A stretch of 64,000 nucleotides of DNA from an uncultured Myxococcia bacterium (GTDB lineage Bacteria > Myxococcota_A > JAVEVO01 > CAYZFJ01): NCBI GenBank assembly GCA_964477705.1, contig CAYZFJ010000001.1, positions 11,380-75,379 on the forward strand, read 5' to 3'. Each line of letters opens with the position of its first letter. The stretch's first letter is position 1. A program made the position numbers and the translations under genes. This document shows, in pieces, positions 263-60,725 of the stretch. The notes beneath the pieces are model-generated. The model ran no database searches and had not been told where the DNA came from. It saw only the letters and a list, made by a program, of their open reading frames with translations.

Positions 263-1679
263 TGTTCAATGGTTCAGCCTGCGAAAAATGGCTCCATGGA
301 AGGAACAGGAATACGGGACGAATAAGGAGGTTGGAGCAATGTGGGGAATGGATGGTGGTCCGAAAGGCGGGCAGGACAAGACCCATGCCGTGCAAACTGA
401 ACCAGCCGGGGAGCCAGGCCTGAGGCAAACGGGAAGGGGAGCGTTGACTGCCCCCCCCAGGCAGGAAGAAGCAACGGCCGTTCTCACCTCTGGCGAGATC
501 TCCAGGTTGCTTAGCGGATGGGACATAATCACTTTTGCCAACGACTGGGAAGGGGATCCACTCTCTAAAAAGCATTTTATGAAGCTGGTTGCAGAGCATA
601 GCCGGGTTCTCTGGGTCAACTCGTTGGGAAACAGAACCCCTAAGGCCTCAGCCTCTGACCTGAAGCGGATTGTTAATAAACTGGGTTCCTTCTTTCGGGA
701 ACATCTGGGTAATCCTGAGCAGAATATTTATGTGCTCAGACCGTTGGCGTTGCCACTCTTCGGATTACCCTGGGCTGAGAAGCTGAATCGCCATATGTTG
801 GGGATGCAGATACGGGCGGTGATGAGGAAACTAGGCTTCCAGAAGACCCTGATCTGGAGTTTCCACCCCAGCGCTGCCTGGATTATGGGGGCTGTTAATG
901 AGGATGCAGTGATGTATCACTGTGTTGACGAGTTTTCTGCCTTCGCTGGTGCACCCACAGAGTCGATTCTAGAATTGGAGGCCAGGTTGGCTGTGGCGTC
1001 TAATCTGGTAATTTGCTGCTCGGCTCCCCTGTATGAACGTAAAAAGAGCCTTAACCCAAAGACGTTTATGGTAAGGCACGGGGTGGATGTGGCCCACTTC
1101 CGCAAAGCCCTTGACAGTACACTCCCCATTCCCGAAGATCTGGCCCAAATTCCCGAGCCGAGGGTGGGATTCTTCGGGCTGATTGCTGAGTGGATTGACC
1201 AGGAACTTATGGGGCAGGTAGCCCGGCTCATGCCCGACGTGTCCTTTGTCTATATCGGAAAAGCAGCGGCAGATACCTCCATGCTGCAGGACGGTAATCC
1301 CAATGTTTATCTGCTCGGTCACCGTTCCTATGATCTTTTGCCTGGATATGCCAGGGGGTTTGCTGCGGCGGTGCTCCCATTTGCCCGAGGTGAGCTTGCA
1401 GATAGTGCCAATCCACTCAAGTTGCGTGAATATTTGGCTGCCGGACTACCGGTAGTCAGCACTGGCATACCTGAGGCGGTGGCCCTTGAGCCAGCCGTAA
1501 GTACGGCGGATCAGGCAGCGCCATTTGTGGGCCACCTGCGCCGCATTCTGGGAGAAAGTGTCGGGCCCTCCATGGAGCGTTCCCGGTTGATGGACAACGA
1601 GGACTGGGAACACAAGTTCAGCCAGATTATCAGTTATCTGGCCCCTCACCTATCTGCACAGACCGAGTCCATTGAGTAA
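249..1679 (+). CDS. Glycosyltransferase (GT-B, GT4-like C-terminal domain) with low-complexity N-terminal region; true start uncertain (ATG at 339 possible)
   Basis: 476-aa ORF; C-terminal half has the GT1/GT4 donor-binding pattern (FGLIAEWIDQ..., E...K). N-terminal ~100 aa Gly/Pro/Gln-rich. Confidence 0.5.
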   Translation: MENFDVQWFSLRKMAPWKEQEYGTNKEVGAMWGMDGGPKGGQDKTHAVQTEPAGEPGLRQTGRGALTAPPRQEEATAVLTSGEISRLLSGWDIITFANDWEGDPLSKKHFMKLVAEHSRVLWVNSLGNRTPKASASDLKRIVNKLGSFFREHLGNPEQNIYVLRPLALPLFGLPWAEKLNRHMLGMQIRAVMRKLGFQKTLIWSFHPSAAWIMGAVNEDAVMYHCVDEFSAFAGAPTESILELEARLAVASNLVICCSAPLYERKKSLNPKTFMVRHGVDVAHFRKALDSTLPIPEDLAQIPEPRVGFFGLIAEWIDQELMGQVARLMPDVSFVYIGKAAADTSMLQDGNPNVYLLGHRSYDLLPGYARGFAAAVLPFARGELADSANPLKLREYLAAGLPVVSTGIPEAVALEPAVSTADQAAPFVGHLRRILGESVGPSMERSRLMDNEDWEHKFSQIISYLAPHLSAQTESIE

Positions 1680-1702
1680 TACGCAATATTGTTTGAATGG
1701 AT

Positions 1703-2251
1703 TCAGCTACTGACCACACCTACCGTTCGCTCAATAATGAAGGCAACCAATGAGGTTATTAATACGAAAAAGATCATCTTGATGATGGAGCGAGCCATAC
1801 CCATTCTGCTGATTTTTCCTATATAGATACCGAGCAGGACCATGACTACTAGGACAATGGCGATTGCGGTGATTGCTGCGGGGATGGCATCCAGGAACAG
1901 GAAAGGAAGAACTGGCATCACTCCGCCCACCATTGACGATATCGCATCCATTATTGCCCCTTTGTGCACAGTCTGCTTGAGGCGTTCTTCCTGGATGGTG
2001 GCTCGCAGAGGGATGGTCATTGCCTCTTCGACCTCTTTCAGATACCGGTATTGCTCAGCATATTCAGCGGTAAAGGCGGCCCACAGGTTGGACATGCCAT
2101 TGGCCATACTTCCCGCCAGACCTGCTGCAATAACGATGGTCGAATCCGGGTTGAGAGCGCCTATGACTACGCCCAGGACAGAGAGGCTTCCGTCCATGAG
2201 GCCTCTGACCATGTATCTAAGGTTCATGGATTTCTTTCGGGCATGGGGCAA
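1703..2251 (-). CDS. VIT1/CCC1-family (DUF125) iron/manganese transporter
   Basis: 182 aa, 5 predicted TM segments, conserved E/M-rich cytoplasmic loop typical of VIT family. Confidence 0.6.
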   Translation of the reverse strand: MPHARKKSMNLRYMVRGLMDGSLSVLGVVIGALNPDSTIVIAAGLAGSMANGMSNLWAAFTAEYAEQYRYLKEVEEAMTIPLRATIQEERLKQTVHKGAIMDAISSMVGGVMPVLPFLFLDAIPAAITAIAIVLVVMVLLGIYIGKISRMGMARSIIKMIFFVLITSLVAFIIERTVGVVSS

Positions 2252-2312
2252 TCACCAGCATACCAGGCCGGACCAAGCCGGACCCAACTGCGAAAAGCTA
2301 AAGTAGCGGGTC

Positions 2313-2609
2313 TTAGTCGGGACCGCCTATGGGCATTACTTCTCCAATGTTGATTCTGGATGTGAGAACTCTATCAAGGGAATGTATGCTTCCTCCCAGG
2401 CCTCGGATGGTCTGGGCGATCTCATCCAGGTTCAACTCCTGCCCTTTGATGGTTAGCTTCAGGCTTTCTGTACGTGCATCGAATTCCACTACCGAAATGT
2501 TCACTGCATCGATTCCCTTGAGGGCGTTGATGGCCTGGGCATAGGTGACCACATTGGGCTCGTGGGGTTTCAGTACGTCGAGGACTAGCAGTTTAACCTT
2601 GGCATCCAC
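2313..2609 (-). CDS. DUF211-family small protein (commonly paired with VIT/DUF125 genes)
   Basis: 98 aa; N-terminal LVLDVLKPH motif characteristic of DUF211; sits immediately upstream of the VIT gene on the same strand. Confidence 0.5.
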   Translation of the reverse strand: MDAKVKLLVLDVLKPHEPNVVTYAQAINALKGIDAVNISVVEFDARTESLKLTIKGQELNLDEIAQTIRGLGGSIHSLDRVLTSRINIGEVMPIGGPD

Positions 2610-2912
2610 TGTGTTCTCCCGTTGTATTCATGATTGGAATGATGATCCTCACAGACCATCGATCAAGTGGATACTTGTTCCGGAGAGCTTCAAGAGGAAG
2701 TGGAAGAGGGTAAAGAAGACATGCGCCTAGGTGACGCTTGCCTTTGAAAGCATGGGAGTCTACCACTGAGATCTGGCTGTATTAAAAGTAAAATGGCTTT
2801 GGTTTGTTGCTTGAATGATTTGACGGTATGCATGACCTGCGTTAATTTTCCTGATTGTTTAAATCTAATGTGAGATGTCATTCTCCCATCTCTGGTTTGC
2901 AGGAGGAACTGC

Positions 2913-3947
2913 GTGAATTTAGCGGAAGCACTTATTCTCGGCGCCGTACAAGGATTGACTGAGTTTCTTCCTATCTCCTCTTCGGGCCATTTGGCCTTGG
3001 GCCACTGGTTTCTGGGTGGGGCAACTGGGGAGAACGATCTGTTGTTTGATGTTTTTGTACATGTGGGCACTCTGGTGGCTGTTTTTGCCGTATTTGGCCG
3101 GGATGTACTCAAAGTGATAACAGACACTTTTGCAGTGCTGGTCGGGGTGGTCAGGACCAGGTCGTCTATGGCTTCGCTTCTGCAAGAGAAGCCCTTTGCC
3201 ATGCTCGGGTTGATGATTGTGCTGGCAACCATCCCTACTGGTCTGATTGGTCTCTTCTTTGGTGACTCTCTTGTAAATCTTACCACTACACCCATCACCG
3301 TGGGTGTAGCTCTGCTGGTGAATGCCGCCATTCTCATGTCTGTAAAGGTGTTCAGGAGGACGGCTGTTGACTATGCAGGCGGTGCAGGTGATGCGGGTGA
3401 TGCGGTGCCTGGTGCTGGAAGCGACATCAGGGGAGCCCGTCTCCAACAGCCTGTATCCTCGCAGGCTGTCTCCTCCGCCGCTGTCTCACAAAACCAGATA
3501 CCATTTCAGGGTGTGGGGACGCTCGCCTTACTCCGTACCGTCTTAATTATCGGCATCGGTCAGGGGCTAGCCATAACAAGGGGTATTTCCCGGTCTGGAA
3601 CAACCATTTCGCTCGCTCTCTTGTTGGGACTCAAACAGGAAGAGGCTGCAAGATTCTCATTCATGCTCTCTATTCCTGCCATCCTTGGAGCTATGGTTCT
3701 TGAACTGGGCAAAGTGGAGCCTGGAGCTATGCTGGTTGCATCCGGCAGCGCTGCTGCTGCAGGCGCTGGTGCGGGTATGGGATTGGCGCAGCTCTTGCCC
3801 TATGTGGCTGGGTTTGTGGTGGCCGCTCTGGTGGGGTACCTGGCATTAAAATTCCTGTTGGGTGTACTCAGGAAGGGTGGGCTGCATTATTTTGCCATAT
3901 ACTGCTTTGTGCTTGGAGCTACGGCTATCGCTTATTCCATCATCTAG
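2913..3947 (+). CDS. uppP: Undecaprenyl-diphosphate phosphatase UppP/BacA, carrying a ~50-aa Gly/Ala/Ser-rich insertion; GTG start
   Basis: GLTEFLPISSSGHL signature near N-terminus, C-terminal SRSG motif, multi-TM. Confidence 0.8.
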   Translation: MNLAEALILGAVQGLTEFLPISSSGHLALGHWFLGGATGENDLLFDVFVHVGTLVAVFAVFGRDVLKVITDTFAVLVGVVRTRSSMASLLQEKPFAMLGLMIVLATIPTGLIGLFFGDSLVNLTTTPITVGVALLVNAAILMSVKVFRRTAVDYAGGAGDAGDAVPGAGSDIRGARLQQPVSSQAVSSAAVSQNQIPFQGVGTLALLRTVLIIGIGQGLAITRGISRSGTTISLALLLGLKQEEAARFSFMLSIPAILGAMVLELGKVEPGAMLVASGSAAAAGAGAGMGLAQLLPYVAGFVVAALVGYLALKFLLGVLRKGGLHYFAIYCFVLGATAIAYSII

Positions 3948-4223
3948 GGATGCTGGTCAGAATTCTGGTCAGAATTGGGCAGTGGCGTGGTAGTCTGGTA
4001 CTTGACGAAAATGATTGTACACACCAAGGATTTGTAGTTGACCTCCACGACGGTGATAACACCGTAGTCTCCGTTCTGGTACGGTAACTGCAGTTGGTCC
4101 AATTCAAATAGTCGCTGATTGTTCATGAGACGTTGTCCCGGTTGCCACAGCGACCGCTTCCGGGATGCACGTTCAATCAACCCAAGCTGAGTTCAGACGT
4201 CGCAATCTCAAGGAGTATCTTTG

Positions 4224-5597
4224 ATGGCTAATGTTACAGTTAACCGGAACATCTTTAGAGAATACGATATCAGGGGAATTGTCGAGCGGGATATGCCTCC
4301 TGAGGTGGTTTACCTACTTGGCAGGGGTGTCGGAACCTACCAGCGGCGCCGCAATGTGAAGAGGGTAGCCCTTGGGAGAGACTGTCGGCTTACTTCGGAC
4401 ACCATGGCTGTGCACTTCTCTGACGGATTGCTTGCATCGGGCCTGGATGTGATCTGGGTGGGAGTTGTCCCTACCCCATTGTTATATTTCGCTTGCCACG
4501 AGCTGGATGTGGATGGTGGAGTGATGATCACCGGTTCGCATAACCCTGCGGAATATAATGGCTTCAAAGTACTGGTTGGCACTGAGACTATCCATGGATC
4601 CCAAATCCAGGAGATCGCATCCATCATTGAAGCCGGTGATTTTGAAGAAGGTAATGGGGTGCAGACCCACCAAGAGGTGACTACAAAATACCTGGCAATG
4701 GTGAAGGAGAATATTCGCCCGACAAAATCTCCCGTGAAGGTCCTTATCGATGCGGGTAATGGTACGGGTGGGGTTGTAGCTGCCCCCCTGTACCGCAGCC
4801 TGGGGCATCAGGTATCAGAGCTTTATTGCGAGATGGATGGGCGATTCCCTAATCACCATCCTGACCCCACCATTGAGGCAAATCTGGTCGATGCCAAGCA
4901 GGCTGTGGCCAAGGGCGAGGTGTCATTGGTTATCGCCTTCGATGGAGATGCGGATCGTATTGGTGTGGTGGATGATAAAGGCTCAATCATCTGGGGCGAT
5001 AAGCTGATGATTCTCCTGTCCCGTCAGATCCTCAAGGAGAAGCCGGGAGCAACGGTGATTGGTGAGGTGAAATGCTCCCAGACGTTGTTTGATGATGTTA
5101 AGGCTCATGGCGGTAACCCCATTATGTGGAAGGTGGGCCATTCCCTCATCAAGGCTAAGATGAGGGAGACAGGTGCCATGCTTGCCGGTGAGATGTCTGG
5201 CCACATTTTCTTCAAGCACCGCTACTACGGTTATGATGATGCCATCTATACGGGGGCCAGGCTGCTGGAGATTCTCTCTGAAACCGGCCAGTCCGTCTCT
5301 CAGTTGCTGGCTGATGTGCCTGCTACTGTTTCCACTCCGGAGATCAGAATAGATTGTCCTGACGAGATCAAGTTCCAGGTGGTTGATGCAGCAGTGGATT
5401 ATTTCCGCAAGCACCATGAGGTTGTTGATGTAGATGGTGTGAGGGTCATGTTCAGAGATGGAGCATGGGGTCTGGTGAGAGCCTCCAACACTCAGCCAGC
5501 CCTGGTGATGCGTTTCGAGGCCAGGGATGCGAGTACACTTACAGGTGTGCGAGCCGTGGTGGAGGATGAGGTTAATCGGCTAATGGCTTCCATGTGA
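4224..5597 (+). CDS. Phosphomannomutase/phosphoglucomutase (alpha-D-phosphohexomutase family)
   Basis: TGSHNP active-site serine loop, GEMSGH sugar-binding loop; AGGAG RBS 8 nt upstream of ATG at 4224 (ORF track starts at TTG 4221). Confidence 0.75.
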   Translation: MANVTVNRNIFREYDIRGIVERDMPPEVVYLLGRGVGTYQRRRNVKRVALGRDCRLTSDTMAVHFSDGLLASGLDVIWVGVVPTPLLYFACHELDVDGGVMITGSHNPAEYNGFKVLVGTETIHGSQIQEIASIIEAGDFEEGNGVQTHQEVTTKYLAMVKENIRPTKSPVKVLIDAGNGTGGVVAAPLYRSLGHQVSELYCEMDGRFPNHHPDPTIEANLVDAKQAVAKGEVSLVIAFDGDADRIGVVDDKGSIIWGDKLMILLSRQILKEKPGATVIGEVKCSQTLFDDVKAHGGNPIMWKVGHSLIKAKMRETGAMLAGEMSGHIFFKHRYYGYDDAIYTGARLLEILSETGQSVSQLLADVPATVSTPEIRIDCPDEIKFQVVDAAVDYFRKHHEVVDVDGVRVMFRDGAWGLVRASNTQPALVMRFEARDASTLTGVRAVVEDEVNRLMASM

Positions 5598-5653
5598 TTA
5601 TTGGATTTGATATTTGATTTTTGTTGGTGGTGTTTTGCGTATTGGGAGGAGAG

Positions 5654-6628
5654 ATGAAGCCGGCGTATGCAGGAGTTGATCTGGGAGGGACCAACCTGAG
5701 GGGGGTGGTCGCTGATTACAGTGGCCAGATTATTATTGAGCAGGCGGTCCCTGTTGGGTTGGACAGGGAGCCTCACTCTATAGTGGTCCGGATGGGGGAC
5801 CTGGTTGGCCAATTGTCCAATAGGGCAGCAGAGAAGGGGTATTCAGTTCTCGCTGCTGGGTTTGGCATAGCAGGCTGGTACAATAATACCACTGGTATCA
5901 TGACTAATTCTCCCAACCTTGGCTGGCGAAACGTCCCCTTGAAGCAGATGGTTGCTTCTACTGTCTCTATCCCCTTTTTTATATTCAATGACCTGTCGGC
6001 AGTTACATATGCAGAATATAAGCTGGGAGCAGGGAAGGGGAGCACCAATATGCTGTGTGTGTTTGTGGGCACGGGAGTTGGCAGTGGTATGGTGCTCAAT
6101 GGGATGATTTTCGAGGGAACAGAAGGGTATGCGGGTGAGTTGGGGCATATCCCCATTTTTCCAGTGGAGACCGGCGAGAAATGCTCCTGTGGTGGGTGTG
6201 GTCATCTGGAAGCCTATACGGGAGGGTTTGGGATTGAGTGCAGGGTTAAAGGCCGATTTGCGATTCAGCCCGATCAGTTTCCCGGGATGGATGAGCTTAC
6301 CGGAGGAGATCCTCATCAAATAACTGCGGCAACTGTGACGGAAGGGGCACGGAGAGGGTGGAAGTGGGCCCTGGACGTGCTGGATGAGGCAGCTACTTAT
6401 CTGGCTATGGGGCTCTCTACCGCACTGTGTGTTCTCAACCCTGACACGGTTATTCTGGGCGGCGGCGTGATGGAAGGTTCGGAGATATACAGAGAGATGA
6501 CTCTTCAGAGATTACACAAGTATGCTCTCCCCATGACCGTTGAGAATGTGGCCATACGAAAACCGGAGCTGGGGAGCAAGGCGGGCATTGTGGGAGCGGC
6601 CATCTTGGCCCGGGATCATCTCTTGTAG
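5654..6628 (+). CDS. ROK-family sugar kinase (glucokinase-like)
   Basis: N-terminal DLGGTN ATP-binding motif; CSCGGCGHLE zinc motif of ROK family; GGGAGGAG RBS before ATG 5654. Confidence 0.7.
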   Translation: MKPAYAGVDLGGTNLRGVVADYSGQIIIEQAVPVGLDREPHSIVVRMGDLVGQLSNRAAEKGYSVLAAGFGIAGWYNNTTGIMTNSPNLGWRNVPLKQMVASTVSIPFFIFNDLSAVTYAEYKLGAGKGSTNMLCVFVGTGVGSGMVLNGMIFEGTEGYAGELGHIPIFPVETGEKCSCGGCGHLEAYTGGFGIECRVKGRFAIQPDQFPGMDELTGGDPHQITAATVTEGARRGWKWALDVLDEAATYLAMGLSTALCVLNPDTVILGGGVMEGSEIYREMTLQRLHKYALPMTVENVAIRKPELGSKAGIVGAAILARDHLL

Positions 6629-6893
6629 GCGAAAGAAAGAATAGTTGGTTGCATCAGGCAATTATTGCCATCCTTTCTGGTTTCTTCTAATTCCATTCTT
6701 AGTTTCCTGATGAGAATTGTTTGCTGGTTGGCAGGGCTCAATGTGCAGTCATGACCTGCCCAGTATAACTCTTTTGTTCATCAGCTCTTGCTGGCTAGCA
6801 TCACTTATCAAATTTAAATCCAATAAAGTGCTCAAGAGCCCCATTGGCTGAGGATGGTAATGGAGGTTTGAGCAGACTGCGGACGGGTGTTTT

Positions 6894-9800
6894 GTGGAAA
6901 GTCGATTTATTGTTGATCTCACGGGCACAGGTGTTGGTGTAGCTGTGGAAATGGGTGGAGGTGGAGATGGCGCGGGAGAGGGATGGGTGGGGCAATGGGG
7001 AGGAGACCTATCGGATTCCCGTGTGCTGCTGACGCTGGGAGGGAAGGCGCTTGGGCTGGCCAGGCTTTCCCGTGCCGGGTTTCCTGTGCCTCGTGGCATT
7101 TGCGTGACCACTCGGGCATGGCGTCATGTGGTCTTGCATAATGTGCTGAAAAAGGTCAGATGGGCTGGGAATATCTCCCTTGCTGATAATTTGTCGAATA
7201 TCAGGCAGGCAATTGTTGATGGACTGATTCCCCAAGAGTTGATGATTCAACTGGAAGATGCTTATGTGCGGCTCTCAGAGGGGGGTAGAGTTCCGCTTGC
7301 AATCAGGTCATCGGCCATAAGTGAAGATGGTCGTTCTGCCAGTTCTGCCGGGATGTTGGCGTCTTATCTCAATGTCTCTGATTTCTCGCACATGATTCGG
7401 AGTATCAAGCTCTGCTGGGCTTCCCAATGGACCCTGGAGGCGCTTTTGTATCAGCACCGGATGTTAGACCTGGTTGATGGTGAAGGTGGTGAAGGTGGTG
7501 GAGACAGAGGGAGGGAAGATGTGCAGAATTCCCTTACACAGATTGTTCCCCAGATGGCAGTGGTGGTTCAGCAGATGGTTTCGCCCCATGTGGCTGGTGT
7601 GTTGTTCTCCCAGGAGCCGGTTACTGGTATGGGCGACAGAGTGGTCATTTGTGCGGCAAGGGGCTTGGGGGAGCATGTGGTAAACGGTGAAGCTGTGGAT
7701 ACTTATGTGGTGGCAAAGGAAGATAAGCGGATCCTTGAATTTACAGCACATGGTCATTGTCAGCAGGGGCAGCTCAATCAGATTGATGAGCGGCTGGGAG
7801 GAGATGATAAGAGACAGGGCATAGAACAGGCTGAACGGGTAGTGATGGATGAGATCTTGTCCAGTGAGATGATTAATGATCTGGTCCAGATGGCATGTGC
7901 AGTGGAGATTGCGATGGGGGAACCCCAGGATATTGAGTGGGCTATCGCTAATGGCCAGATCTGGCTGCTGCAGGCACGCCCCATCACCACATCTGCTTCA
8001 AATCCCGCATCTTCATCCATTGACCCGCATGGCCCTGGAGGGCAGGGTGCATCTGATTCATCACAGCAGAGCCTTCAGCCACTGTTCAACCCATCGGTTA
8101 AAGCTCACCATTCATCATGCGCAGACAACGAACCGGCAGTCTGGTCCAGCGTTAATGTGGGCGAAGCATTGCCAGGCGTGGCCACCCCTCTTACATGGTC
8201 CATTATCCGAAGCTTTTCACGACGCGGGTTTCAGATAGCATTTGGTTCACTGGGGCTCACGGTTCCCGCCCGATTTGGGCTGGTTGGCAGCATCAGGGGC
8301 AGGGTTTATCTGAATATCACTGAATTCATGGATGTGGCCTCAGCAGTTCCCTTTCTTGACGTTCAGACTCTTCTCGCCCTGGGAGGAGGCTTCTGTCCAC
8401 CTCGGGTGGCTGACGTCTTGCAGGAGATGGCGAGCAGAAAGAAGAAGAGAGCTTTGCCTTATCTGCTCAAAATGCCGCTGATTGCTACCAGGATGCTCTT
8501 GTCTCATCTGTTCACGCCTCTTAGGGCATCTCTCAATTCGAGAAAGCTTGAGCAGTTCCTTAAACAGACCAATGCCCAAGCGTCCCAATTGAATGATTGG
8601 TCAAGTAGGCAGTTGACTGCCAAGTTAGAAGAAACCGACAGTATTTTTACTACAACTGGTGAGGTGATGCTTGCTGCCGCTTCCAACTGCCTGGCTTCGA
8701 TAATTATGGTACGAGTGTTGCTGAGGTTGGTGGTGGGAGAATCTGTCAGTCGTGAGGAGCAACGGCTCTTCGCTGGACTGGGTGTAAAGAGTGCAGCACC
8801 CGGACTGGATCTGCTGAAGCTGGCTGGTCAGGTATCCCTCTGCCCGGAATTAAAGGCTGCTCTCCTATCTGCGATTGGCCAACAGGGCCGTGGTGCTCTG
8901 GAGACGTTAAGAGAGAGTCCAGCGGGTAAGTGCTTTCTGGATGGCCCTTTCTCGGAATTTCTGGATCGGCATGGTCACCGTGCAATCCGTGAAACCGAGC
9001 TCTCTGTGTCGAGATGGAGAGAGGACCCTGTCTTTCTGCTGGGGGTCCTCTCCCGCCATATACGGGATGCTTCGGTGGAGGGGCGGGGCATGGGCGTCCA
9101 AGATGGTGGCAGCAGTACAAGTATCACCAGTGCCACCAGCGCTAACAGTGCTAACAGCACCAACACTACCACGCAGAGCAGCGCCACTTGCAGTAGCAGG
9201 CTGAGAGAGGTTGTGCAGCCTGACCATGGAGATGCTGTGGTTGTTGCTGGATGGGAGCGAGAGAATACTGCCCTCGCTCTTAGAAAGCGGGCGACCATGG
9301 AGGTGGCGTCTCACCTTCCCAGGCTGCTGCGTCCTCTCTTCTATCTGCTTCTGGGCCACGCCCAGAGTGGAACCAGGCGCAGGGAAGCGCTGCGATCAGA
9401 TGTGGTGCAGTTGTTGGGCGTGTACCGGATGCTCTTTCGTGAGGCCGGACGCAGGCTCTCTCATGAGGGATATCTCTCAGAACCTGACGATGTCTTTTTT
9501 ATGAAAGCTGGAGAGATTGCCCATTACCTGCACTTGCTGACCGGACAGGACCAGAAATCGTCTGGCCGTAGCGATAATGCTGGTTCTCGCATAGGTGCTG
9601 ATGAATCTATTGTTCAGGCTGGGTTAGCAAAGGAGCAGAGCATGGACCGATCCGCTTGCTCCACAGATGTATTGCGTCGGAAGATCATATTCTCTCTGGA
9701 CCAATCCTTACCCGAACCCCCCTCCACATTTATTGCGGGAGAGAAGCCATTCCATCATGGAGGCTCGCTGGAAATAGAATGTGTTTCGACATCGAACCAC

Positions 9801-10142
9801 GAAGGGAAGAAGCGGGGGAGTGTGCTCCGTGGTCTGGCAGCTTCGCCGGGAAGGGTGGTCAGTCGGGTGAGACGGCTGGATAGCCCTGAACAGTGGAGTA
9901 AACTGGCGACAGGCGAAATTTTATTGATACGTAGTGTGGATGTGGGATGGACGCCTCTCTTTCTGGTAGCTGGAGGAATGATCACTGAGCAGGGAGGTCC
10001 TCTGAGTCATGGGGCTGTGGTGGCTAGAGAGTATGGGCTTCCGGCAGTAGTAAATGTGCCTGGTGCCCTAGATGTGCTGGAAGCTGGCATGTTGGTGGAG
10101 GTTGATGGGGACAAGGGAATAGTCACTATCATTGAACAATAG
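6894..10142 (+). CDS. PEP-utilising enzyme with rifampin-phosphotransferase-like architecture (N-terminal PPDK_N ATP-grasp + C-terminal swivel phosphohistidine domain, no TIM barrel), with low-complexity S/T/N insertion; start uncertain
   Basis: N-terminal pyruvate-phosphate-dikinase PEP/pyruvate-binding-type region; C-terminal GGPLSHGAVVAREYGLPAVV mobile-domain motif at extreme C-terminus. Confidence 0.6.
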   Translation: MESRFIVDLTGTGVGVAVEMGGGGDGAGEGWVGQWGGDLSDSRVLLTLGGKALGLARLSRAGFPVPRGICVTTRAWRHVVLHNVLKKVRWAGNISLADNLSNIRQAIVDGLIPQELMIQLEDAYVRLSEGGRVPLAIRSSAISEDGRSASSAGMLASYLNVSDFSHMIRSIKLCWASQWTLEALLYQHRMLDLVDGEGGEGGGDRGREDVQNSLTQIVPQMAVVVQQMVSPHVAGVLFSQEPVTGMGDRVVICAARGLGEHVVNGEAVDTYVVAKEDKRILEFTAHGHCQQGQLNQIDERLGGDDKRQGIEQAERVVMDEILSSEMINDLVQMACAVEIAMGEPQDIEWAIANGQIWLLQARPITTSASNPASSSIDPHGPGGQGASDSSQQSLQPLFNPSVKAHHSSCADNEPAVWSSVNVGEALPGVATPLTWSIIRSFSRRGFQIAFGSLGLTVPARFGLVGSIRGRVYLNITEFMDVASAVPFLDVQTLLALGGGFCPPRVADVLQEMASRKKKRALPYLLKMPLIATRMLLSHLFTPLRASLNSRKLEQFLKQTNAQASQLNDWSSRQLTAKLEETDSIFTTTGEVMLAAASNCLASIIMVRVLLRLVVGESVSREEQRLFAGLGVKSAAPGLDLLKLAGQVSLCPELKAALLSAIGQQGRGALETLRESPAGKCFLDGPFSEFLDRHGHRAIRETELSVSRWREDPVFLLGVLSRHIRDASVEGRGMGVQDGGSSTSITSATSANSANSTNTTTQSSATCSSRLREVVQPDHGDAVVVAGWERENTALALRKRATMEVASHLPRLLRPLFYLLLGHAQSGTRRREALRSDVVQLLGVYRMLFREAGRRLSHEGYLSEPDDVFFMKAGEIAHYLHLLTGQDQKSSGRSDNAGSRIGADESIVQAGLAKEQSMDRSACSTDVLRRKIIFSLDQSLPEPPSTFIAGEKPFHHGGSLEIECVSTSNHEGKKRGSVLRGLAASPGRVVSRVRRLDSPEQWSKLATGEILLIRSVDVGWTPLFLVAGGMITEQGGPLSHGAVVAREYGLPAVVNVPGALDVLEAGMLVEVDGDKGIVTIIEQ

Positions 10143-10351
10143 AACAATAAGCGGTTAGATTGGTGACTGGTTTTCAGAAAACGGAAGTATTGCTTTCCTT
10201 TCGTGTTATGCTCTGCACAGGTGCTTTGCAAGAAGATGTCTGTTTGTTCGTTTGTATTATAAGAGTTACACTCATTGTCTTGGCGCGTTTTTAGGCGGTC
10301 ATGGTGGCCGAGCCGCATGTCTACATGCGTTTTTGAGAGTGTGAGGTGATA

Positions 10352-10711
10352 ATGAATGAGAAAAATAACCAGCCCAATGATGTTGATGCGCATGTGGTGG
10401 AGAAGCAGACCGCAGGTGGGTTGGAAATCCAGATTGATGACCTTATCGCACAGGGTGTTTATAGTAATGGCATGATGATCAACTTCAATGAAAATGAATT
10501 CGCCATCGACTTTCTTTATGTGCAGCCTACCCACCCCAAAGCAAAAGTCCGTTCCAGAGTGATTGTCACCCCTGGTCAGACTCGGCGTTTTCTGCAGCTT
10601 CTACAGGAAAACGTTCAGCGGTATGACAACAGGTTCGGCAGGCAGTCCCGCATAGGTGACAACAGCGGACCTGCTGCTGCAGGCCGACAGGGAGGACCTC
10701 CTATCCATTGA
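10352..10711 (+). CDS. DUF3467-family hypothetical protein
   Basis: NFNENEFAIDF motif typical of DUF3467; ATG 10352 preferred over GTG 10346. Confidence 0.45.
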   Translation: MNEKNNQPNDVDAHVVEKQTAGGLEIQIDDLIAQGVYSNGMMINFNENEFAIDFLYVQPTHPKAKVRSRVIVTPGQTRRFLQLLQENVQRYDNRFGRQSRIGDNSGPAAAGRQGGPPIH

Positions 10712-10991
10712 CAGAGTTGTCTGCGAGCATGCTGAGTTGCTGGCTGCATCGAGGATTAAAGCCAGGAGCCAGGGGAGGATTGTGCAAGGCAAGCAGGTAG
10801 TATCTGCCTCTAGATTACTTTTTATTGTCTTTATCCAGTATTTTGGGTATTTAACAAGTCGGTGTGGTAGATATTGACCCTTGAAGTTTGGTTTAATCTT
10901 TCAATGGTGCTGTAGGTGAAGTCGGAATCCTGGGGAACTATGTTTCCGGCAAATTCCTCTCTGTTGTGCGAGATAAGGCAAGGAGCATAAG

Positions 10992-12116
10992 ATGAAGCGA
11001 TTGCTGAAAGGCAAGGCTTTGAGCTTAATATTGGGTGCCACGGTTTTCTGGTCCATTCTGGCTGCAGGATGCACTAATTCGGGAGGAGGGGGAACCGCAG
11101 GTGGGGCTCTGGCTCTTCAGGACTATTCGAAGGAGTATGCAAAGGCCATCTGCAACTTCATGGATAGGTGTGTCGGAGAGAGCCAGATGGCTGCTGCGAA
11201 TATGCCAAGCTTTGAAGTTTGCATAGCGTCTGTTGGCAAGACTTACCAGAACACCCACTACGCAAACCTGCTTAATCTCATCCAGGCCGGGATCACTACC
11301 TTTGACTCGGCTCAGGCCCGGGAATGCGTCAATGCCATTAAAAACGCCACCTGTGATGATAGCTCCTGGTATAAGCAGATTTGTGCTGGTGTATTTCAGG
11401 GCAGCGTGGCTGTGGGCGAGGAGTGCGTAATGGACGAAGTATGCACCAACCCACAGGTCAATCATTGCCAGTTTTCAGGAGAGTGTCCGGGCGTTTGCAC
11501 ACCAAGGATTGCGTTGGGCAAGGATTGTAGTGGTGCATACGATCAGTGCGATTTTGGGACCATTTGTGTGGATGATACCTGCGTGACTGCTCCTGGAGAG
11601 GGCGAGGAGTGTGGAGCAGGGATTGAGTGTGCTGGTTCGCTCTTCTGTGTGGGAGCCACTAATGGTGCCGATGAGCCCGATGGTGAGTGCAAGTCTCTCC
11701 AGGACCTGTACATCAGGGGAGAGCTGGCCACCTGTGACATCTCGAAGAATTTCTATTGTCGGGATGGCCTGCGGTGCGAATTTAACAGGGACCCGGTCAG
11801 TGACTCCGAGGGTATCTGTATGAAAGGTGGAGCAGAGGCAAATTCCGCCTGTTATCCTTCATTCCCGGATCCCTGCCCCGATGGTTTTTATTGTCAGGTA
11901 ACTACACCGGGGCGTGCGGGCAGGTGTAACGAAGTACCTCTCTATACGCAATCTTGTCCTGAAGGCAGGTGTGCCTGGCCAGCAGTGTGTGTTGAGGGTT
12001 CATGCCTCTTGCAGGTGGAAAATGGGCAGAATTGTGGTGGCAAGAGTCCTGTATGCCACAGCAACACATGTATTAATGATATCTGTGCCGCCCCAGATCC
12101 CTGCGAAGGATTCTGA
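10992..12116 (+). CDS. Secreted Cys-rich lipoprotein
   Basis: Signal peptide with lipobox LAAGC; ~40 Cys in 374 aa arranged in repeated C-x-x-x-C / C-x-G-x-C patterns. Confidence 0.55.
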   Translation: MKRLLKGKALSLILGATVFWSILAAGCTNSGGGGTAGGALALQDYSKEYAKAICNFMDRCVGESQMAAANMPSFEVCIASVGKTYQNTHYANLLNLIQAGITTFDSAQARECVNAIKNATCDDSSWYKQICAGVFQGSVAVGEECVMDEVCTNPQVNHCQFSGECPGVCTPRIALGKDCSGAYDQCDFGTICVDDTCVTAPGEGEECGAGIECAGSLFCVGATNGADEPDGECKSLQDLYIRGELATCDISKNFYCRDGLRCEFNRDPVSDSEGICMKGGAEANSACYPSFPDPCPDGFYCQVTTPGRAGRCNEVPLYTQSCPEGRCAWPAVCVEGSCLLQVENGQNCGGKSPVCHSNTCINDICAAPDPCEGF

Positions 12117-12414
12117 TCACCCTTAAACACCACATTATAGGTTCATCCCCCTTCAATCTTCTCCTTTAGCTTTCACTTTCACACCCCCATACATTTCTTT
12201 GTACTGCCAACTTTTTGCCCTTTAACGTCCCCATCTAGCTTGTGTTCCATGACATGAGCTGAGCTTCCACCTGTAAATATTAAACAGTGTCACGTGGAAC
12301 TTTGGGTTTGTGAATATGCTTAACCGAACACACATTCGGCATGCCGTGCCTCATGTACAGGAGTCTAAGTTGGAGCAAGGACTTCTGGGGAGCAATGTTC
12401 AACAGCCAGGTGCA

Positions 12415-15096
12415 TCAGATGAAAAGGTTGATATTGCCCTCGGATGCGCTCTCGATGTATGTGGCCACGCCACCTTCTTCAACCCCGTCTATCAGCTCTT
12501 CACGTTTCAGCCCCATCACATCCATTGACATGGTGCATGCAACCATACGAGCCCCATTTTTCATGGCAGCATCCAGGAGCCCAGGCAGAGAATCCACATT
12601 TTTCTGCTTCATCACATGTTTCATCATGCTGGTGCCCATACCAGCCATATTCATCTTGGATAAGGCGAGCTTTCTCGGCCCCCTTGGCAGCATGAAACCG
12701 AACATTTTTTCCATCAGATTCTTGCGTGTCTTGACCGGCTGATCCTTGCGCAGCAGGCTCAGCCCCCAAAAAGTGAAGAACATGACCACCTTCATGCCCA
12801 TGGCAGCCGCACCATTAGCGATGATAAATGCCGCCATAGCCTTGTCCATGTCGTTGTTAAAGACGATGATGCTCAGTTGCTGAGAGTGACCACTTTGGGC
12901 CGTAGTGTTGCCAAGGGAAAACCCGGTAGGAGCACCATGAATCATGTTGGTAGCCGGGTCTGCAGGAGATGTGCCATGGCTGATAGTGGCTGTATATCGC
13001 CCATTGTTAGCGTCCACTGATATCAGCTTGTGGCCGGCTTTGCGACACCAGGCTGCTGCATCAGCCGGGAATCCGGGGTCTGTGGCGATAACCTTCAGGA
13101 TCTGGCCTGGCTTTAGGGAATCCATCTTCTCTCTCATGCGCATCAGCGGTCCGGGACACTGGAGGCCGCATGCATTAAGCACAAAAGTATCCATTCCATT
13201 TTCCTGATTAGTCTCTCTATTCATCTGGTTACTCTCTCCTGAGGTCATTGATGGAGCAGCAGGTGATGTCTGGACCGCCATGGCTCTGTCGCTGTTCTCT
13301 GGGGAATCGCACATTCCGGTGGTAAGCGGCTGAGAGGGCATCTCAAATTGAGGCAATTGACCCGTATACATGAGCCAGGAGGTGTAACCGCCGACCAGAT
13401 TCCTGGCGTTGAATCCACTCTGAGTCAGAATGCGTTGGGCCGTGTAGCCTCTTAGCCCAACACGGCAATAGGTGATGTACTCCTTATCGGCAGCGAGTTG
13501 ACTTATGCGATCTCTCAGCTCATCTACCGGCATGAGAATAGAGCCGGGAATATGCCCTGCTTCATGCTCTTCCAAGGTGCGCACATCAAGGAGGACAGTG
13601 TTATTTCCCTTATCGGGTGCGTATTCACTTTGTTTCAGGATTTCTTCCAGTTGGGCCGATTGGATGGGGCGATGGTCGCCTCGAATCATATTGGCGGCTA
13701 CGAACCCGATCATATTGACTGGGTCTTTGGCAGAGTTGAACGGTGGTGCATAGGCCAGCTCCAGATGTTCCAGATCAAAAACGGTCAATTTACCTGCTAT
13801 TGCTGTGGAGATCACATCGATTCGTTTATCAACCCCTTCCATACCAATGGCCTGAGCTCCGAAAATTTGTCCGTTTGTCGGGTTGAAATACATCTTGAAT
13901 GTGATTGGAGAAGAGCCGGGGTAGTATCCGGCGTGATTCCCCGGGTGGATTATAGCCGTCTCAAACTGGGTCCCGGCGGTAGTGAGCGCCTTTTGGTTGA
14001 GCCCTACGGTTCCTGCTGCAAGATCGAATACCTTGCAGATGGATGTCCCGGAAGTGCCCCTGTATCTGCTGTCCTTGCGGCCAAAAACCTGGTCTGCTGC
14101 AATGCGACCCTGTCTGTTGGCGGGGCCGGCCAGGGGAATCAGCACTTGCCTATTGCTGATGGGGTTTGTGACCTCAACGGCATCGCCCGCTGCATAGATG
14201 TGTTCATCGGAGGTCTCCATGCGTTCATTTACCTGGATGCCTCCGGTGATACCAAGCTGGAGACCGGCTTCTTTTGCGAGGGCGGTTCGTGGGCGTACAC
14301 CCGCTGCGACGATGACCATGTGAGTGTTGAGAGAGGACCGTGTGCCAGCCTTGTCCTCCAGGTTGACAGTCAAGCATGTCTCTGGAGAGGGCTTGGTGTT
14401 GAGGCCAGTGCTAACCTTTGGGGCGATCGAGGTGAGCTTGGTCTCCAGCTTCAGATCCACCCCGTGCAACCGGATGTTCTGGTGTAGAAGCTCAGCCATG
14501 TCCCTATCTACGTTAGGCAGTACCTGAGGACCGAGCTCGATCATGCTGACTGCAAGTCCACGCTGCCTTAGATTTTCTGCAACCTCAACACCGATGAAAC
14601 CTGCCCCCAGCACTGTGGCATGCTTTACCTGGTGGTTCTTGATCCAACTTATAATCCCGTTCATCTCGGTAATGGTCTGGAGGTTAAACACATTCTCCAA
14701 GTTGAGACCAGGCAGGGGAGGACGGAATGCCTCTGCGCCGGGAGCCAGGATCAGCTTGTCATAGGAGAGCTCATATTCCCTCTGCTCCGGAACGATGAGC
14801 ACCTTGAGCAGCTTCCGCTTCCTGTCGATGGACAAGACCTGATTATTGGTGCGCACGTCTATGTTGAACCGTGCTTTAAGGGATTGTGGGGTCTGGACGA
14901 TGAGGGCTCCCTGCTCTGGGATTACGCCTCCAATGTGGTATGGAAGACCGCAGTTGGCAAAACTGACATGGGGGCCCTTTTCGAGAATGATGATCTCTGC
15001 GCTCTCGGAGAGGCGGCGTGCGCGGGTGGCGGCAGATGCGCCACCTGCCACACCTCCCACAATTACCAGGCGCATGGGAGGACGGGAGGCTGTCAT
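12415..15096 (-). CDS. Multidomain sulfur oxidoreductase: CoA-disulfide-reductase-like FAD/NAD(P) oxidoreductase + rhodanese + TusA-like + DsrE-like (NADH-dependent persulfide reductase-type fusion)
   Basis: N-terminal GGVAGG dinucleotide fold and SFANCGLPY active-site Cys motif; rhodanese CRVGLRG loop; CPGP TusA motif; C-terminal DsrE/F-like domain. Confidence 0.7.
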   Translation of the reverse strand: MTASRPPMRLVIVGGVAGGASAATRARRLSESAEIIILEKGPHVSFANCGLPYHIGGVIPEQGALIVQTPQSLKARFNIDVRTNNQVLSIDRKRKLLKVLIVPEQREYELSYDKLILAPGAEAFRPPLPGLNLENVFNLQTITEMNGIISWIKNHQVKHATVLGAGFIGVEVAENLRQRGLAVSMIELGPQVLPNVDRDMAELLHQNIRLHGVDLKLETKLTSIAPKVSTGLNTKPSPETCLTVNLEDKAGTRSSLNTHMVIVAAGVRPRTALAKEAGLQLGITGGIQVNERMETSDEHIYAAGDAVEVTNPISNRQVLIPLAGPANRQGRIAADQVFGRKDSRYRGTSGTSICKVFDLAAGTVGLNQKALTTAGTQFETAIIHPGNHAGYYPGSSPITFKMYFNPTNGQIFGAQAIGMEGVDKRIDVISTAIAGKLTVFDLEHLELAYAPPFNSAKDPVNMIGFVAANMIRGDHRPIQSAQLEEILKQSEYAPDKGNNTVLLDVRTLEEHEAGHIPGSILMPVDELRDRISQLAADKEYITYCRVGLRGYTAQRILTQSGFNARNLVGGYTSWLMYTGQLPQFEMPSQPLTTGMCDSPENSDRAMAVQTSPAAPSMTSGESNQMNRETNQENGMDTFVLNACGLQCPGPLMRMREKMDSLKPGQILKVIATDPGFPADAAAWCRKAGHKLISVDANNGRYTATISHGTSPADPATNMIHGAPTGFSLGNTTAQSGHSQQLSIIVFNNDMDKAMAAFIIANGAAAMGMKVVMFFTFWGLSLLRKDQPVKTRKNLMEKMFGFMLPRGPRKLALSKMNMAGMGTSMMKHVMKQKNVDSLPGLLDAAMKNGARMVACTMSMDVMGLKREELIDGVEEGGVATYIESASEGNINLFI

Positions 15097-15398: not shown

Positions 15399-15542
15399 AG
15401 CAATACCTTGGGAAAATTCATATAGCATTTCATATATATACGATTCGCTATATTTGCAAGTTGAGTTGCATAATAATATTACATTCGTCGGGCATTTGGC
15501 TGGATAACAAGGGGTAAGGGGGAGGGGCGAGGCTGCTCTGCC

Positions 15543-15660
15543 GCTGTAGGGGCACGGCATGCCGTGCCCTTCGTTAGCGGTGCACCCAACCTGCCCAAAC
15601 AATTTTGTGAAATCAAACTGCCTTAAAAGAACACGCATGTGGCATGCCGACCCCTCAAGT
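15543..15660. repeat. REP-like palindromic intergenic element, long composite copy (core GGGCACGGCATGCCGTGCCC at ~15550-15569)
   Basis: Perfect 20-nt palindrome plus conserved flank TTCGTTAGCGGTGCACCCAAC; near-identical ~110-nt copy at 45541-45690. Confidence 0.7.
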
Positions 15661-18804: not shown

Positions 18805-18838
18805 AAAGAGGGGAAAGCTTTTCGGCTTTCCCCTCTTT
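18805..18838 (-). terminator. Rho-independent terminator hairpin between convergent genes (serves the bS22 gene; T-tract on minus strand)
   Basis: AAAGAGGGGAAAGC-ttttcg-GCTTTCCCCTCTTT perfect 14-bp stem; revcomp followed by CTTTCTTTTTTTGCC. Confidence 0.55.
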
Positions 18839-39211: not shown

Positions 39212-39376
39212 AGCGGCAGCAAGGGGCAAGGTGAAATCACCTCTGCCTCTGCACGGGCACGGCATGCCTGAGAAGTTGTCAGTGGGCAGTGGGCAGTGGG
39301 CAAAGTTCAAGGGAGTCACCTCAGCCTCTATAGGGGTAGGGAGAACCGGTTATTACCCCGGTCCCCCCTCCCAACG

Positions 39377-39427
39377 CCTGTACGGGCACGGCATGCCGTG
39401 CCCTTCGTCAGCGGTGCACCTAACCAG
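39377..39427. repeat. REP-like palindromic element copy (core 39384-39403); degenerate half-copy at 39251-39272
   Basis: CTCCCAACGCCTGTACGGGCACGGCATGCCGTGCCCTTCGTCAGCGGTGCACCTAACC. Confidence 0.7.
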
Positions 39428-39470: not shown

Positions 39471-39731
39471 TCACTGTCCGACCATACCCAAAACTACAGA
39501 GCTGAATCTGACCACCTGGTCTCCAATCCATGGTGCGGCAAGGATCAGGGCAACTAGCCCGGCAATGGTCCGTGATAGGGGAGAGAGGCCGGAATCGTTA
39601 ACTCTGAACACCCGGCCAAGTAGCGAAATGGCCAACCCAGCCACCATGGAGGCTATGATTACCGGCAGGGATAACACCAGCACAAGCAGCAGTCCTTCCA
39701 TAACGATTTCCGTGAGCTGCTCAGGGAGCAT
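39471..39731 (-). CDS. FliQ/SctS-family-like small 2-TM membrane protein (orphan)
   Basis: 86 aa, two TM helices, central L-S-P-L loop and AAPW motif aligning with FliQ/SctS; strong AAAGGAG RBS. Confidence 0.4.
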   Translation of the reverse strand: MLPEQLTEIVMEGLLLVLVLSLPVIIASMVAGLAISLLGRVFRVNDSGLSPLSRTIAGLVALILAAPWIGDQVVRFSSVVLGMVGQ

Positions 39732-45283: not shown

Positions 45284-45540
45284 ACCATCCGATTTCGGGA
45301 TTTCTCACTATCAATAATTGAAGAGGCATTTTTTCCAATTGTCCATAATACCAGCAGAGCTTGTGATTTGGAATAATATCCTTTGAACTACCCACCCCAT
45401 TGTCCCTTATGAGCCTCAGCACTAAATGTCTGTACGGGCACGGCACGCCGTATGTATGTTCAGTTAAGCTTCAACTCCATGCCATGAAGCCATCAGGCAC
45501 CCTATCATTTCTGTATCGATATGGATCTGGTACCACACTC

Positions 45541-45690
45541 CCTCCCAACGCCTGTAGGGGCACGGCATGCCGTGCCCTTCGTCAGCGGTGCACCCAACTC
45601 GCCTAAACAATTTTTGGCAATCCACTTGCCTTAAAAGAACACGTATGCGGCACACTGTGCCCTTCGCCAGCGGTGCGAACACTCCTTCAT
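45541..45690. repeat. REP-like element, long composite copy (core 45558-45577); additional degenerate copy at ~45430-45455
   Basis: About 110 nt near-identical to 15543-15660 including TTAAAAGAACACG segment. Confidence 0.7.
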
Positions 45691-50964: not shown

Positions 50965-51012
50965 CCCACCCCTGTACGGGCACGGCATGCCGTGCCCTTC
51001 GCCAGCGGTTTA
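50965..51012. repeat. REP-like element copy immediately 3' of cdd (core 50978-50997)
   Basis: CCTGTACGGGCACGGCATGCCGTGCCCTTCGCCAGCGG. Confidence 0.7.
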
Positions 51013-51117
51013 ATTCACTCTTCTCTTCCCGCTTTCAACCTGTAACTCTCTGTCGTAGGGGCGAGCGGCGCTCGCCCGCCAGAGCTTCGTGTCGGCAATT
51101 CAATCCAGAGCTCAAAC

Positions 51118-51175
51118 ACCTGTACGGGCACGGCATGCCGTGCCCTTTGTTAGCGGTGCACCTAACCCGCCACCA
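51118..51175. repeat. REP-like element copy (core 51126-51145); second unrelated palindrome GGGCGAGCGGCGCTCGCCC at 51056-51078
   Basis: CTGTACGGGCACGGCATGCCGTGCCCTTTGTTAGCGGTGCACCTAACC. Confidence 0.7.
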
Positions 51176-59298: not shown

Positions 59299-59499
59299 AT
59301 GATGGACAAGTCACTTCTTGATGCCGGCTGCCGTGTTGCGTTTGCTGCACTGCTGCATGATCAAGGTAAATTTGCTGAACGGGCAGGTATGCCCAACTCC
59401 TGCAAAGTCAGGGCTCTAGGGCTAATAAACGGGAGCAAAGGGCAGCGATTTAGCGCTTGTTGGCTCAAGGGTAATACGACCGAAGAGCAGACCACATGA
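59299..59499 (+). pseudogene. 66-aa ORF carrying a Cas10/Cas3-type HD-domain N-terminal motif (AALLHDQGKFAERAG); probable truncated HD nuclease remnant or mini-protein; stop overlaps cas6 start (ATGA)
   Basis: LLHDxGKF is the start of the HD motif of Cas10/Cas3 HD domains; ORF ends after 66 aa; GGGGGA RBS. Confidence 0.3.
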
Positions 59500-60611: not shown

Positions 60612-60725
60612 AAAAGCAACCAGGTACAGAGGCGATCACAACCGCTCGATAGGTGCACGCACATTACGTTGTATTCTCTGACGAGCAATTCGCACACACC
60701 ATGGCAACATTTCGGGAGGTAGTTC

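Follow-up and report, generated by a model that had tools for sequence, protein, structure and literature searches.

What are the palindromes that recur in unrelated intergenic regions of this 64,000-nt stretch of DNA (the whole of which we call the window), and how did they come to lie there? The window is a bacterial chromosome segment of 53% G+C that carries a tRNA cluster, tuf, secE, nusG, rplA, rpoB and an rpoC-sized ORF. The closest RpoB proteins are 72-74% identical, the named relatives being Myxococcales, Polyangia or Deltaproteobacteria MAGs, and a search of the window against Rfam at the gathering thresholds returned tRNAs as the sole matches. An earlier note on this DNA had described the palindromes as REP-like elements at seven intergenic sites that could act as terminators or as targets of a RAYT transposase.

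A tagged palindromic unit in five intergenic regions

The perfect 20-nt palindrome GGGCACGGCATGCCGTGCCC (80% G+C) occurs exactly at 15550, 39384, 45558, 50978 and 51126, which are the five positions given in the earlier note, and it occurred 0 times in 100 dinucleotide-preserving shuffles of the window. A search with the tag plus the left half-palindrome (CTGTASGGGCACGGCAYGCC, up to 3 mismatches) found 7 sites against 0 expected, the extra sites lying at 39249 and 45430. We then built a profile from the five 64-nt units and searched it against the window; the five full copies were recovered at E 1e-18 to 1e-20, and partial copies at 45423-45451, 45648-45676, 39241-39268 and 12337-12366 (minus strand) at E 3.5e-5 to 1.7e-3. 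The half or degenerate copies noticed before at 12338, 39255 and 45434 were recovered in this way, with the copy at 12338 lying in the opposite orientation to the others. The copies at 12338 and 45434 share a distinct right-hand side (ATGTRTGTTCRGTTAAGC), which indicates a propagated sub-variant rather than random decay. All nine copies (five full and four partial) are intergenic and inside a 39-kb span, and they occupy five unrelated intergenic regions, not seven.

In the window genome the unit is about 47-64 nt long and consists of CTGTA[G/C], the palindrome and TTCGYYAGCGGTGCACCYAAC. This 21-nt 3' tail stands behind four of the five full copies, as had been claimed for the family, except that the copy at 50978 lacks the GGTGCACC portion. 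The 5' flank had been called conserved as well, but CTCCCAACGCCTGTA is complete only at 39384 and 45558, and the remaining copies have CTGTA alone in common. The tag is GTAG at 15546-15549 and 45554-45557 and GTAC in the other three full copies, and the 3' side of the window palindromes is TTCG or TTTG, not CTAC. The tag lies on the plus strand in eight of the nine copies, and the units are clustered as head-to-tail doublets or triplets with all tags on one strand within a cluster.

The first region (12.3 kb) lies between convergent genes and holds the partial variant CCTGTAC-ATGA-GGCACGGCATGCCG-AATGTGTGTTCGGTTAAGC at 12337-12366 on the minus strand. The second (15.5 kb) runs from a thiolase stop (15708, minus strand) to the arsR start (about 15398, minus strand); its full unit at 15544-15590 on the plus strand (tag CTGTAG at 15544-15549, palindrome at 15550-15569, tail TTCGTTAGCGGTGCACCCAAC) is antisense to both flanking genes and is followed by a spacer and a degenerate second copy (15591-15655, the copy itself at about 15634-15655 with 14/20 palindrome matches). 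In the third (39.3 kb), between the convergent stops of a methyltransferase gene (39211, plus strand) and a fliQ-like gene (39471, minus strand), a plus-strand partial copy at 39241-39268 (CTGCAC followed by GGGCACGGCATGCC, with no right arm) lies 129 nt upstream of a full GTAC-tagged unit at 39378-39424 on the same strand. The fourth (45.5 kb), from which deoC (plus strand) and a 1410-aa ORF (start at 45283, minus strand) diverge, carries on the plus strand a variant copy at 45423-45451 (CTGTAC, GGGCACGGCACGCCG and TATGTATGTTCAGTTAAGC, the right-hand side as at 12337-12366), a full GTAG-tagged unit at 45552-45598, and a spacer with a degenerate second copy (GCGGCACACTGTGCCCTTCGCCAGCGGTGC) at 45599-45676. 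In the fifth (51.0 kb), a palindrome begins 15 nt past the cdd stop codon (50963); this copy (50972-51007, the GTAC tag starting at 50972) has a short tail (TTCGCCAGCGG), and behind it, in equal orientation on the plus strand, come a separate GTAG-tagged hairpin at 51055-51077 (GTAG and GGGCGAGCGGCGCTCGCCC) and a full GTAC-tagged unit at 51120-51166, the sole copy with a T-rich stretch (TTTGTT) after it. Pfam family matches confirmed the gene context given in the earlier note, namely thiolase, arsR, deoC and other deo-type genes, and cdd, with the fliQ-like gene matching Bac_export_3.

The composite of about 110 nt that had been likened to a MITE is indeed shared by two sites (15544-15655 and 45552-45663, 112 nt, 85% identity) and does contain a second, degenerate palindrome. 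By alignment, it is a head-to-tail doublet made of a full unit, a conserved spacer and a decayed second unit, rather than a MITE. The similarity between sites stops at the unit borders and the flanks are unrelated past 64-112 nt, which argues for a dispersed short repeat and against a segmental duplication.

Several other features of the window were recorded along the way. An imperfect, AT-rich palindrome at 15420-15453 (ATATAGCATTTCATATATATACGATTCGCTATAT) precedes the arsR start by about 25-55 nt and could serve as a promoter element or operator. Downstream of arsR, 12415-15096 (minus strand) encodes an 893-aa fusion of pyridine-nucleotide disulphide oxidoreductase, rhodanese, TusA and DsrE domains that looks like a sulfur-trafficking fusion protein. 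Just 3' of the rpoC-sized ORF, a hairpin at 18805-18838 with a 13-bp stem and A and T runs on either side (AAAGAGGGGAAAGC...GCTTTCCCCTCTTT) looks like a bidirectional intrinsic terminator, with no relation to the REP family. The fliQ-like gene (39471-39731, minus strand; Bac_export_3, E 3.8e-14) is solitary, as no other flagellar or type III secretion gene was found among the adjoining ORFs scanned, and the 1410-aa ORF (41051-45283, minus strand) had no Pfam match at E up to 0.001. Three successive secreted-type proteins are encoded at 51677-55462 (plus strand), the first with nine Stig1 cysteine-rich repeats (129-nt period in the DNA) and Big_2 domains, the second having Big_2 domains alone and the third combining Big_2 with an FGE-sulfatase domain; a 374-aa ORF at 10992-12116 is also cysteine-rich and had no Pfam match. 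A candidate defence or conflict locus spans 59475-63323 (plus strand), where the gene for a Cas6-like protein (PF10040) precedes one for an 865-aa protein that combines TPR repeats with a primase domain of the AEP-TOTE type (PF22548, 'TOTE conflict system'); no CRISPR array was noticed.

The palindrome in other genomes and in RAYT genes

We scanned one genome per species for the exact 20-mer and found at least 119 loci with at least 133 copies, where chance would give about 0.5 occurrences in 596 Gb (our own estimate, assuming equal base frequencies). The matches listed place the exact palindrome in more than 100 other genomes of about 20 phyla. Many of the hosts listed are Acidobacteriota, and others belong to Chloroflexota, Planctomycetota, Omnitrophota, Gemmatimonadota, Nitrospirota, Desulfobacterota, Verrucomicrobiota, Cyanobacteriota, Deinococcota, Bacillota, Armatimonadota, Latescibacterota, beta- and gamma-Proteobacteria and Entotheonella, with one archaeal (Methanosarcinales) MAG; the two isolates among them are Iodobacter sp. 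CM08 and Nostoc foliaceum FACHB-393. The 24-mer of GTAG plus palindrome was also found in 14 IMG/VR contigs, one of which, with genes for Gam and terminase, is a Mu-like phage. The only plasmid with a close variant is a Nostoc megaplasmid, in which the variant, with a CAGTG centre, occurs in 8 places. A 7.8 kb putative viral contig (L128, IMG/VR UViG_3300017593_001354) carries five palindrome copies between ORFs at 1606-7008, and 0 of 6 of its ORFs had a Pfam family match.

Outside the window genome, the conserved part at these loci (at least 119) is the palindrome preceded by GTAG and, in some copies, followed by CTAC. Before the copies were oriented, 90 of those listed (at least 133) had one foot, GTAG in 41 of them and CTAC, on the opposite side, in 49, and 21 had both feet. 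When the copies listed were oriented, each letter of GTAG was present in 118-123 of 131, and C stood at the fourth tag position in 4 of 131. The extended unit of the window had 0 matches in JGI metagenomes, which indicates that the tail and the GTAC tag are lineage-specific. As for strand, GC skew is positive in the window, where eight of nine tags are on the plus strand, and at the loci elsewhere the skew of the tag strand has a mean of -0.029 (Wilcoxon p 0.005, sign test not significant, among the matches listed); the two signals conflict, and gene strand confounds them.

In an all-against-all BLAST of the listed loci, the genes beside the copies were unrelated, the clusters being widespread families (ABC ATPases, methyltransferases, SDRs and the like), together with a four-member RAYT cluster. 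A tblastn search, in which RAYT sequences were used as probes only, found Y1-type ORFs at five of the loci (L008, L056, L021, L065 and L100, of at least 119). Pfam Y1_Tnp confirmed those at L021 and L056, and the match at L065 was weak and under the curated cut-off. At L021 and L065, the palindrome lies in-frame directly after the HuH motif. No Y1 transposase was found in the ORFs between paired copies or in the phage-contig ORFs.

We found the same arrangement among homologues. JGI names several of the best 120 homologues 'REP element-mobilizing transposase RayT', and 69 of the 120 contain the exact palindrome, read as RGTACRAPT or, in another frame, as VGARHAVPL, a count that is biased by the word index of that search. 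In nearly all palindrome-bearing homologues checked, the palindrome is at one HuH-Y loop, some proteins having two copies; other homologues have VGAKNFSPL, into which another double-foot palindrome, GTAGGGGCGAAAAATTTTTCGCCCCTAC, translates. When 1.84 billion representative proteins were searched with a profile and without an index, 40,591 family clusters came up at E up to 0.001. Of the best 150 of these, 15 carry the exact palindrome in their HuH-Y loop, read in frame 1 by 10, in frame 2 by 4 and in frame 3 by 1, and insertions of the related forms 'VGA.....PL' or 'RG.....APT' are present in many more. That one protein position is read in three frames shows that it is the DNA and not the peptide that is conserved. 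The sole PDB relative of the palindrome-bearing RAYT family is E. coli TnpA-REP (4ER8).

The palindrome also stands beside RAYT genes. In an Acidobacteriota MAG (L056, CAVOOU010000002.1), inverted palindrome doublets lie at 4007/4144 and 6724/6867, and about 450 nt from the second doublet is a gene (7331-7999) that passes the NCBIfam REP_Tyr_transpos cut-off (88.1 vs 80 bits). The two doublets (4007-4163 and 6724-6887) are REPIN-like, with members about 140 nt apart and identical flanks, and similar doublets of a second hairpin family (CACAGGCATTCCTGCCTGTG) lie close by. The RayT genes of L135 and L137 contain the palindrome, and other GTAG hairpins lie at the RayT gene ends in L135 and inside both neighbouring genes in L137. 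In L137 (JGI Ga0373638_0000078, 7023-13490), the RayT gene at 10001-10615 is flanked by genes for an N6_N4 DNA methyltransferase and a ResIII helicase, both of which its ends overlap, and double-foot GTAG palindromes of three sequences are in-frame within all three genes.

The RAYT gene for which the earlier note had proposed a search was not found within the 64-kb window, either by Pfam on ORFs of about 80 aa or more that had no prior identity or by tblastn and the family hmmsearch in six frames (best E 0.23), and no transposase of any kind was found there. We considered whether the left flank of the copy at 15550 resembles RAYT coding sequence and rejected this, since the match (E about 0.001 over 120 related queries) is driven by the palindrome peptide and is not significant.

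Taken together, the results point to the window elements being REPs of the GTAG-tagged superfamily, of the type tied to RAYT/TnpA-REP subclass 2.4 (RAYT group 4), and mobilised by a RAYT, a reading to which we give a probability of about 0.78. The suggestion in the earlier note that the elements are REP-like and may be RAYT targets is borne out by a tagged, G+C-rich intergenic hairpin in the window and by the palindrome beside or inside RAYT genes elsewhere.

Alternative readings: RNA element, operator or transposon remnant

A different view is that the copies are primarily RNA elements, that is, intrinsic terminators or 3'-end mRNA stabilisers that are kept by selection at each site and are not mobile. 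A DNA hairpin with an 8-bp stem and a 4-nt loop is predicted in every window copy, the stem base being GGG...CCC (three G-C pairs) in all of them, and the RNA 32-mer is predicted to fold into a very stable hairpin (-18.5 kcal/mol at z -4.3, a stability that 0 of 200 shuffles reached). Elsewhere, the copies lie at a median of about 39 nt past stop codons, in 28 convergent vs 14 divergent contexts, and the sense strand carries the tag in 22 of 28 tandem ones (among the matches listed and by crude ORF calls), as would suit elements that act on transcripts, and E. coli REPs are reported to influence 3'-UTR fate. On the other hand, only the copy at 51126 passed the terminator scan. The others continue into TTCG, and since a T-rich tail is present in only one of the five copies, the terminator role raised in the earlier note is weak; a classical intrinsic-terminator role of the window hairpins is not supported. 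Furthermore, the copy at 45558 lies between divergent gene starts and that at 15550 is antisense to both neighbours, and site-by-site selection would not give identical 47-64-nt units with a shared GTAC, tail and 112-nt composite. It would also leave the copies within RAYT genes unexplained. We therefore regard this view as unlikely. An outer helix around the hairpin (CGCCTG/CAGCGG) was predicted in 3 copies and was set aside, as its z reaches only -1.6 to -2.4 and clear covariation was not seen.

The perfect two-fold symmetry of the palindrome, with its CATG centre, is what would be expected of operator sites for a dimeric regulator that binds duplex DNA and whose regulon would comprise arsR and the deo/cdd nucleoside genes, among others. 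Promoter-containing regions hold two of the sites, one upstream of arsR and one ahead of deoC in the divergent region, and sister hairpins in the listed loci stay perfectly symmetric through paired changes (for example GGGCACAGCATGCTGTGCCC and GGGCAATTCATGAATTGCCC). However, convergent gene ends flank some of the other copies, one copy begins 15 nt past a stop codon, two to three copies are clustered at a site, and the conserved GTAG tag is asymmetric. The identical sequence also stands in about 20 phyla beside unrelated genes, in phage contigs, and in-frame in RAYT and other genes. This makes operator sites very unlikely.

That the elements are a MITE or another DDE-type insertion sequence remnant, or a segmental duplication local to the contig, is scarcely credible: the 112-nt composite common to two sites, the confinement of the nine copies to a 39-kb span and the missing extended unit in JGI metagenomes would fit, but the composite is a direct doublet of one REP unit, there are no terminal inverted repeats, no target-site duplications were noticed, no transposase was found in the window, similarity ends at the unit borders and the core is dispersed in more than 100 genomes. 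The earlier note had taken the elements for a dispersed family and named a segmental duplication as the alternative, and the unrelated flanks and the spread of the core agree with a dispersed family and speak against such a duplication. Integron attC sites, CRISPR repeats and dif were considered and dropped on anatomy, the flanks being direct rather than inverted and there being no array.

Relation to described REPs and possible mode of spread

The REP class, to which our preferred reading assigns the elements, consists of short repeats that form hairpins and are linked to RAYT tyrosine transposases. The GTAG-tagged REP superfamily, which includes the SMAG repeats of Stenotrophomonas, comprises 24 families in several phyla, with subfamilies that differ by complementary stem changes; these REPs lie mostly downstream of genes and some lie inside genes, and head-to-tail dimers are rare (Di Nocera, De Gregorio, Rocco 2013, PMC3733652). 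The window elements resemble this superfamily in their short, G+C-rich palindromic stem-loop with an unpaired terminal GT[AG]G foot (at 15546-15549, at 45554-45557 and in the sister hairpin at 51055) and in their extragenic placement. The likeness extends to paired stem changes between subfamilies, a position mostly downstream of genes, an occurrence as singletons, dimers and clusters, the presence of some families in distant organisms and of some REPs inside genes. The palindrome itself was not found in the text or supplements of PMC3733652, and neither the DNA string nor its peptide translations were found in the searchable literature.

A closer comparison is with TnpA-REP subclass 2.4, which equals RAYT group 4 of Bertels (Quentin 2018, PMC6006769). 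Its proteins have the motifs NH[IFV]H, WQ and YIxNNP and a median length of 194 aa, are abundant in Cyanobacteria and Bacteroidetes and have scattered members in other phyla, and their REPs come in two forms, 'long canonical', in which the stem opens with three G-C pairs, and 'double foot', with 5' GT[AG]G and 3' C[TC]AC (PMC6006769); group 4 is present in 17 bacterial classes (Bertels 2017, PMC5581495). Point by point, the family agrees with what has been published. Like these REPs, the elements have a GT[AG]G 5' foot, a long stem that opens with three G-C pairs, an optional 3' CTAC, a patchy spread over many phyla and in-gene copies (the in-gene palindrome being seen in other genomes only). 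Unlike them, the window copies are single-foot with TTCG for CTAC, carry GTAC in three of five cases and a 21-nt lineage-specific tail, and stand head-to-tail, and no subclass 2.4 gene is visible in the 64-kb window. The window copies have no 3' C[TC]AC foot, which does not exclude subclass 2.4 because the subclass includes single-foot 'canonical long' REPs (PMC6006769).

Two other systems are less close. The E. coli REP/BIME system with its TnpA-REP (4ER8) has the same GTAG plus hairpin architecture, but its REPs are imperfect, bulged and of alternating orientation in BIMEs, whereas the window palindrome is perfect and the repeats are direct. The REPINs of Pseudomonas (Bertels and Rainey 2011, PMC3116915) are likewise non-autonomous REP-derived units tied to a single-copy RAYT, and the inverted doublets of L056 are like them. 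The window doublets are head-to-tail, not inverted, and do not have the form of a REPIN, inverted doublets being seen in L056 only. The single-foot, head-to-tail arrangement of the window copies, reported as rare in PMC3733652 and different from an inverted REPIN doublet, counts against our explanation, as do the failure to find a Y1/RAYT gene in the 64-kb window, the GTAC tag of three full copies and the missing extended unit in JGI metagenomes.

The mechanism with the best support is that a RAYT encoded at another place in the genome mobilises the elements, and for the window genome we infer it from the link seen in other genomes. We propose that the core, a 5' GTAG or GTAC tetranucleotide plus an 8-10-bp G+C-rich hairpin with the stem GGG...CCC, would be exposed in single-stranded DNA, where a Y1 HuH tyrosine transposase (RAYT) encoded elsewhere would recognise the hairpin and the tag. 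By nicking and rejoining single-stranded DNA, the RAYT would let the elements act as non-autonomous mobile DNA, and the elements would build up between genes where they are tolerated, for the most part shortly after stop codons. In the window genome, one derived master unit of about 47-64 nt with the GTAC tag variant and the lineage-specific tail would have been amplified, often as head-to-tail doublets or triplets. Where it is transcribed, the hairpin probably also has the secondary effect of protecting upstream mRNA 3' ends. The GTAC tag, the 21-nt tail and the 112-nt doublet are shared between copies, and a truncated sub-variant occurs at two sites, which indicates that a local master was copied and argues against separate arrivals. 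It may be that the GTAC copies (three of the five full ones) are no longer recognised by the RAYT.

The identical REP core across about twenty phyla is the only unusual aspect of the family. Quentin (2018, PMC6006769) reports REP insertions within subclass 2.4 genes, and does not report cross-phylum identity or a donor role. One explanation, which we consider possible but doubtful, is that a single 24-28-nt REP (GTAG-GGGCACGGCATGCCGTGCCC, with or without CTAC) has stayed essentially invariant across about 20 bacterial phyla, an archaeal MAG and phage contigs since it is carried inside the coding sequence of a horizontally spreading group-4 RAYT. The embedded copy, in any of three frames and at one loop, would then be the master or donor, or an autoregulatory hairpin, that seeds a new REP population upon each transfer.

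For the organism, the window adds REPs of a described class to an uncultured Myxococcota-like lineage, which by itself matters little, and flags five intergenic regions with strong hairpins that may affect mRNA 3' ends. The shared core provides a sequence-defined handle on whether group-4 RAYTs and their REPs spread jointly by horizontal transfer, and on whether the gene-internal copy is a donor, a target or a regulator. If the in-gene REP does travel with its RAYT and seeds new REP populations, REP families could no longer be seen, as they usually are, as lineage-specific and inherited vertically.
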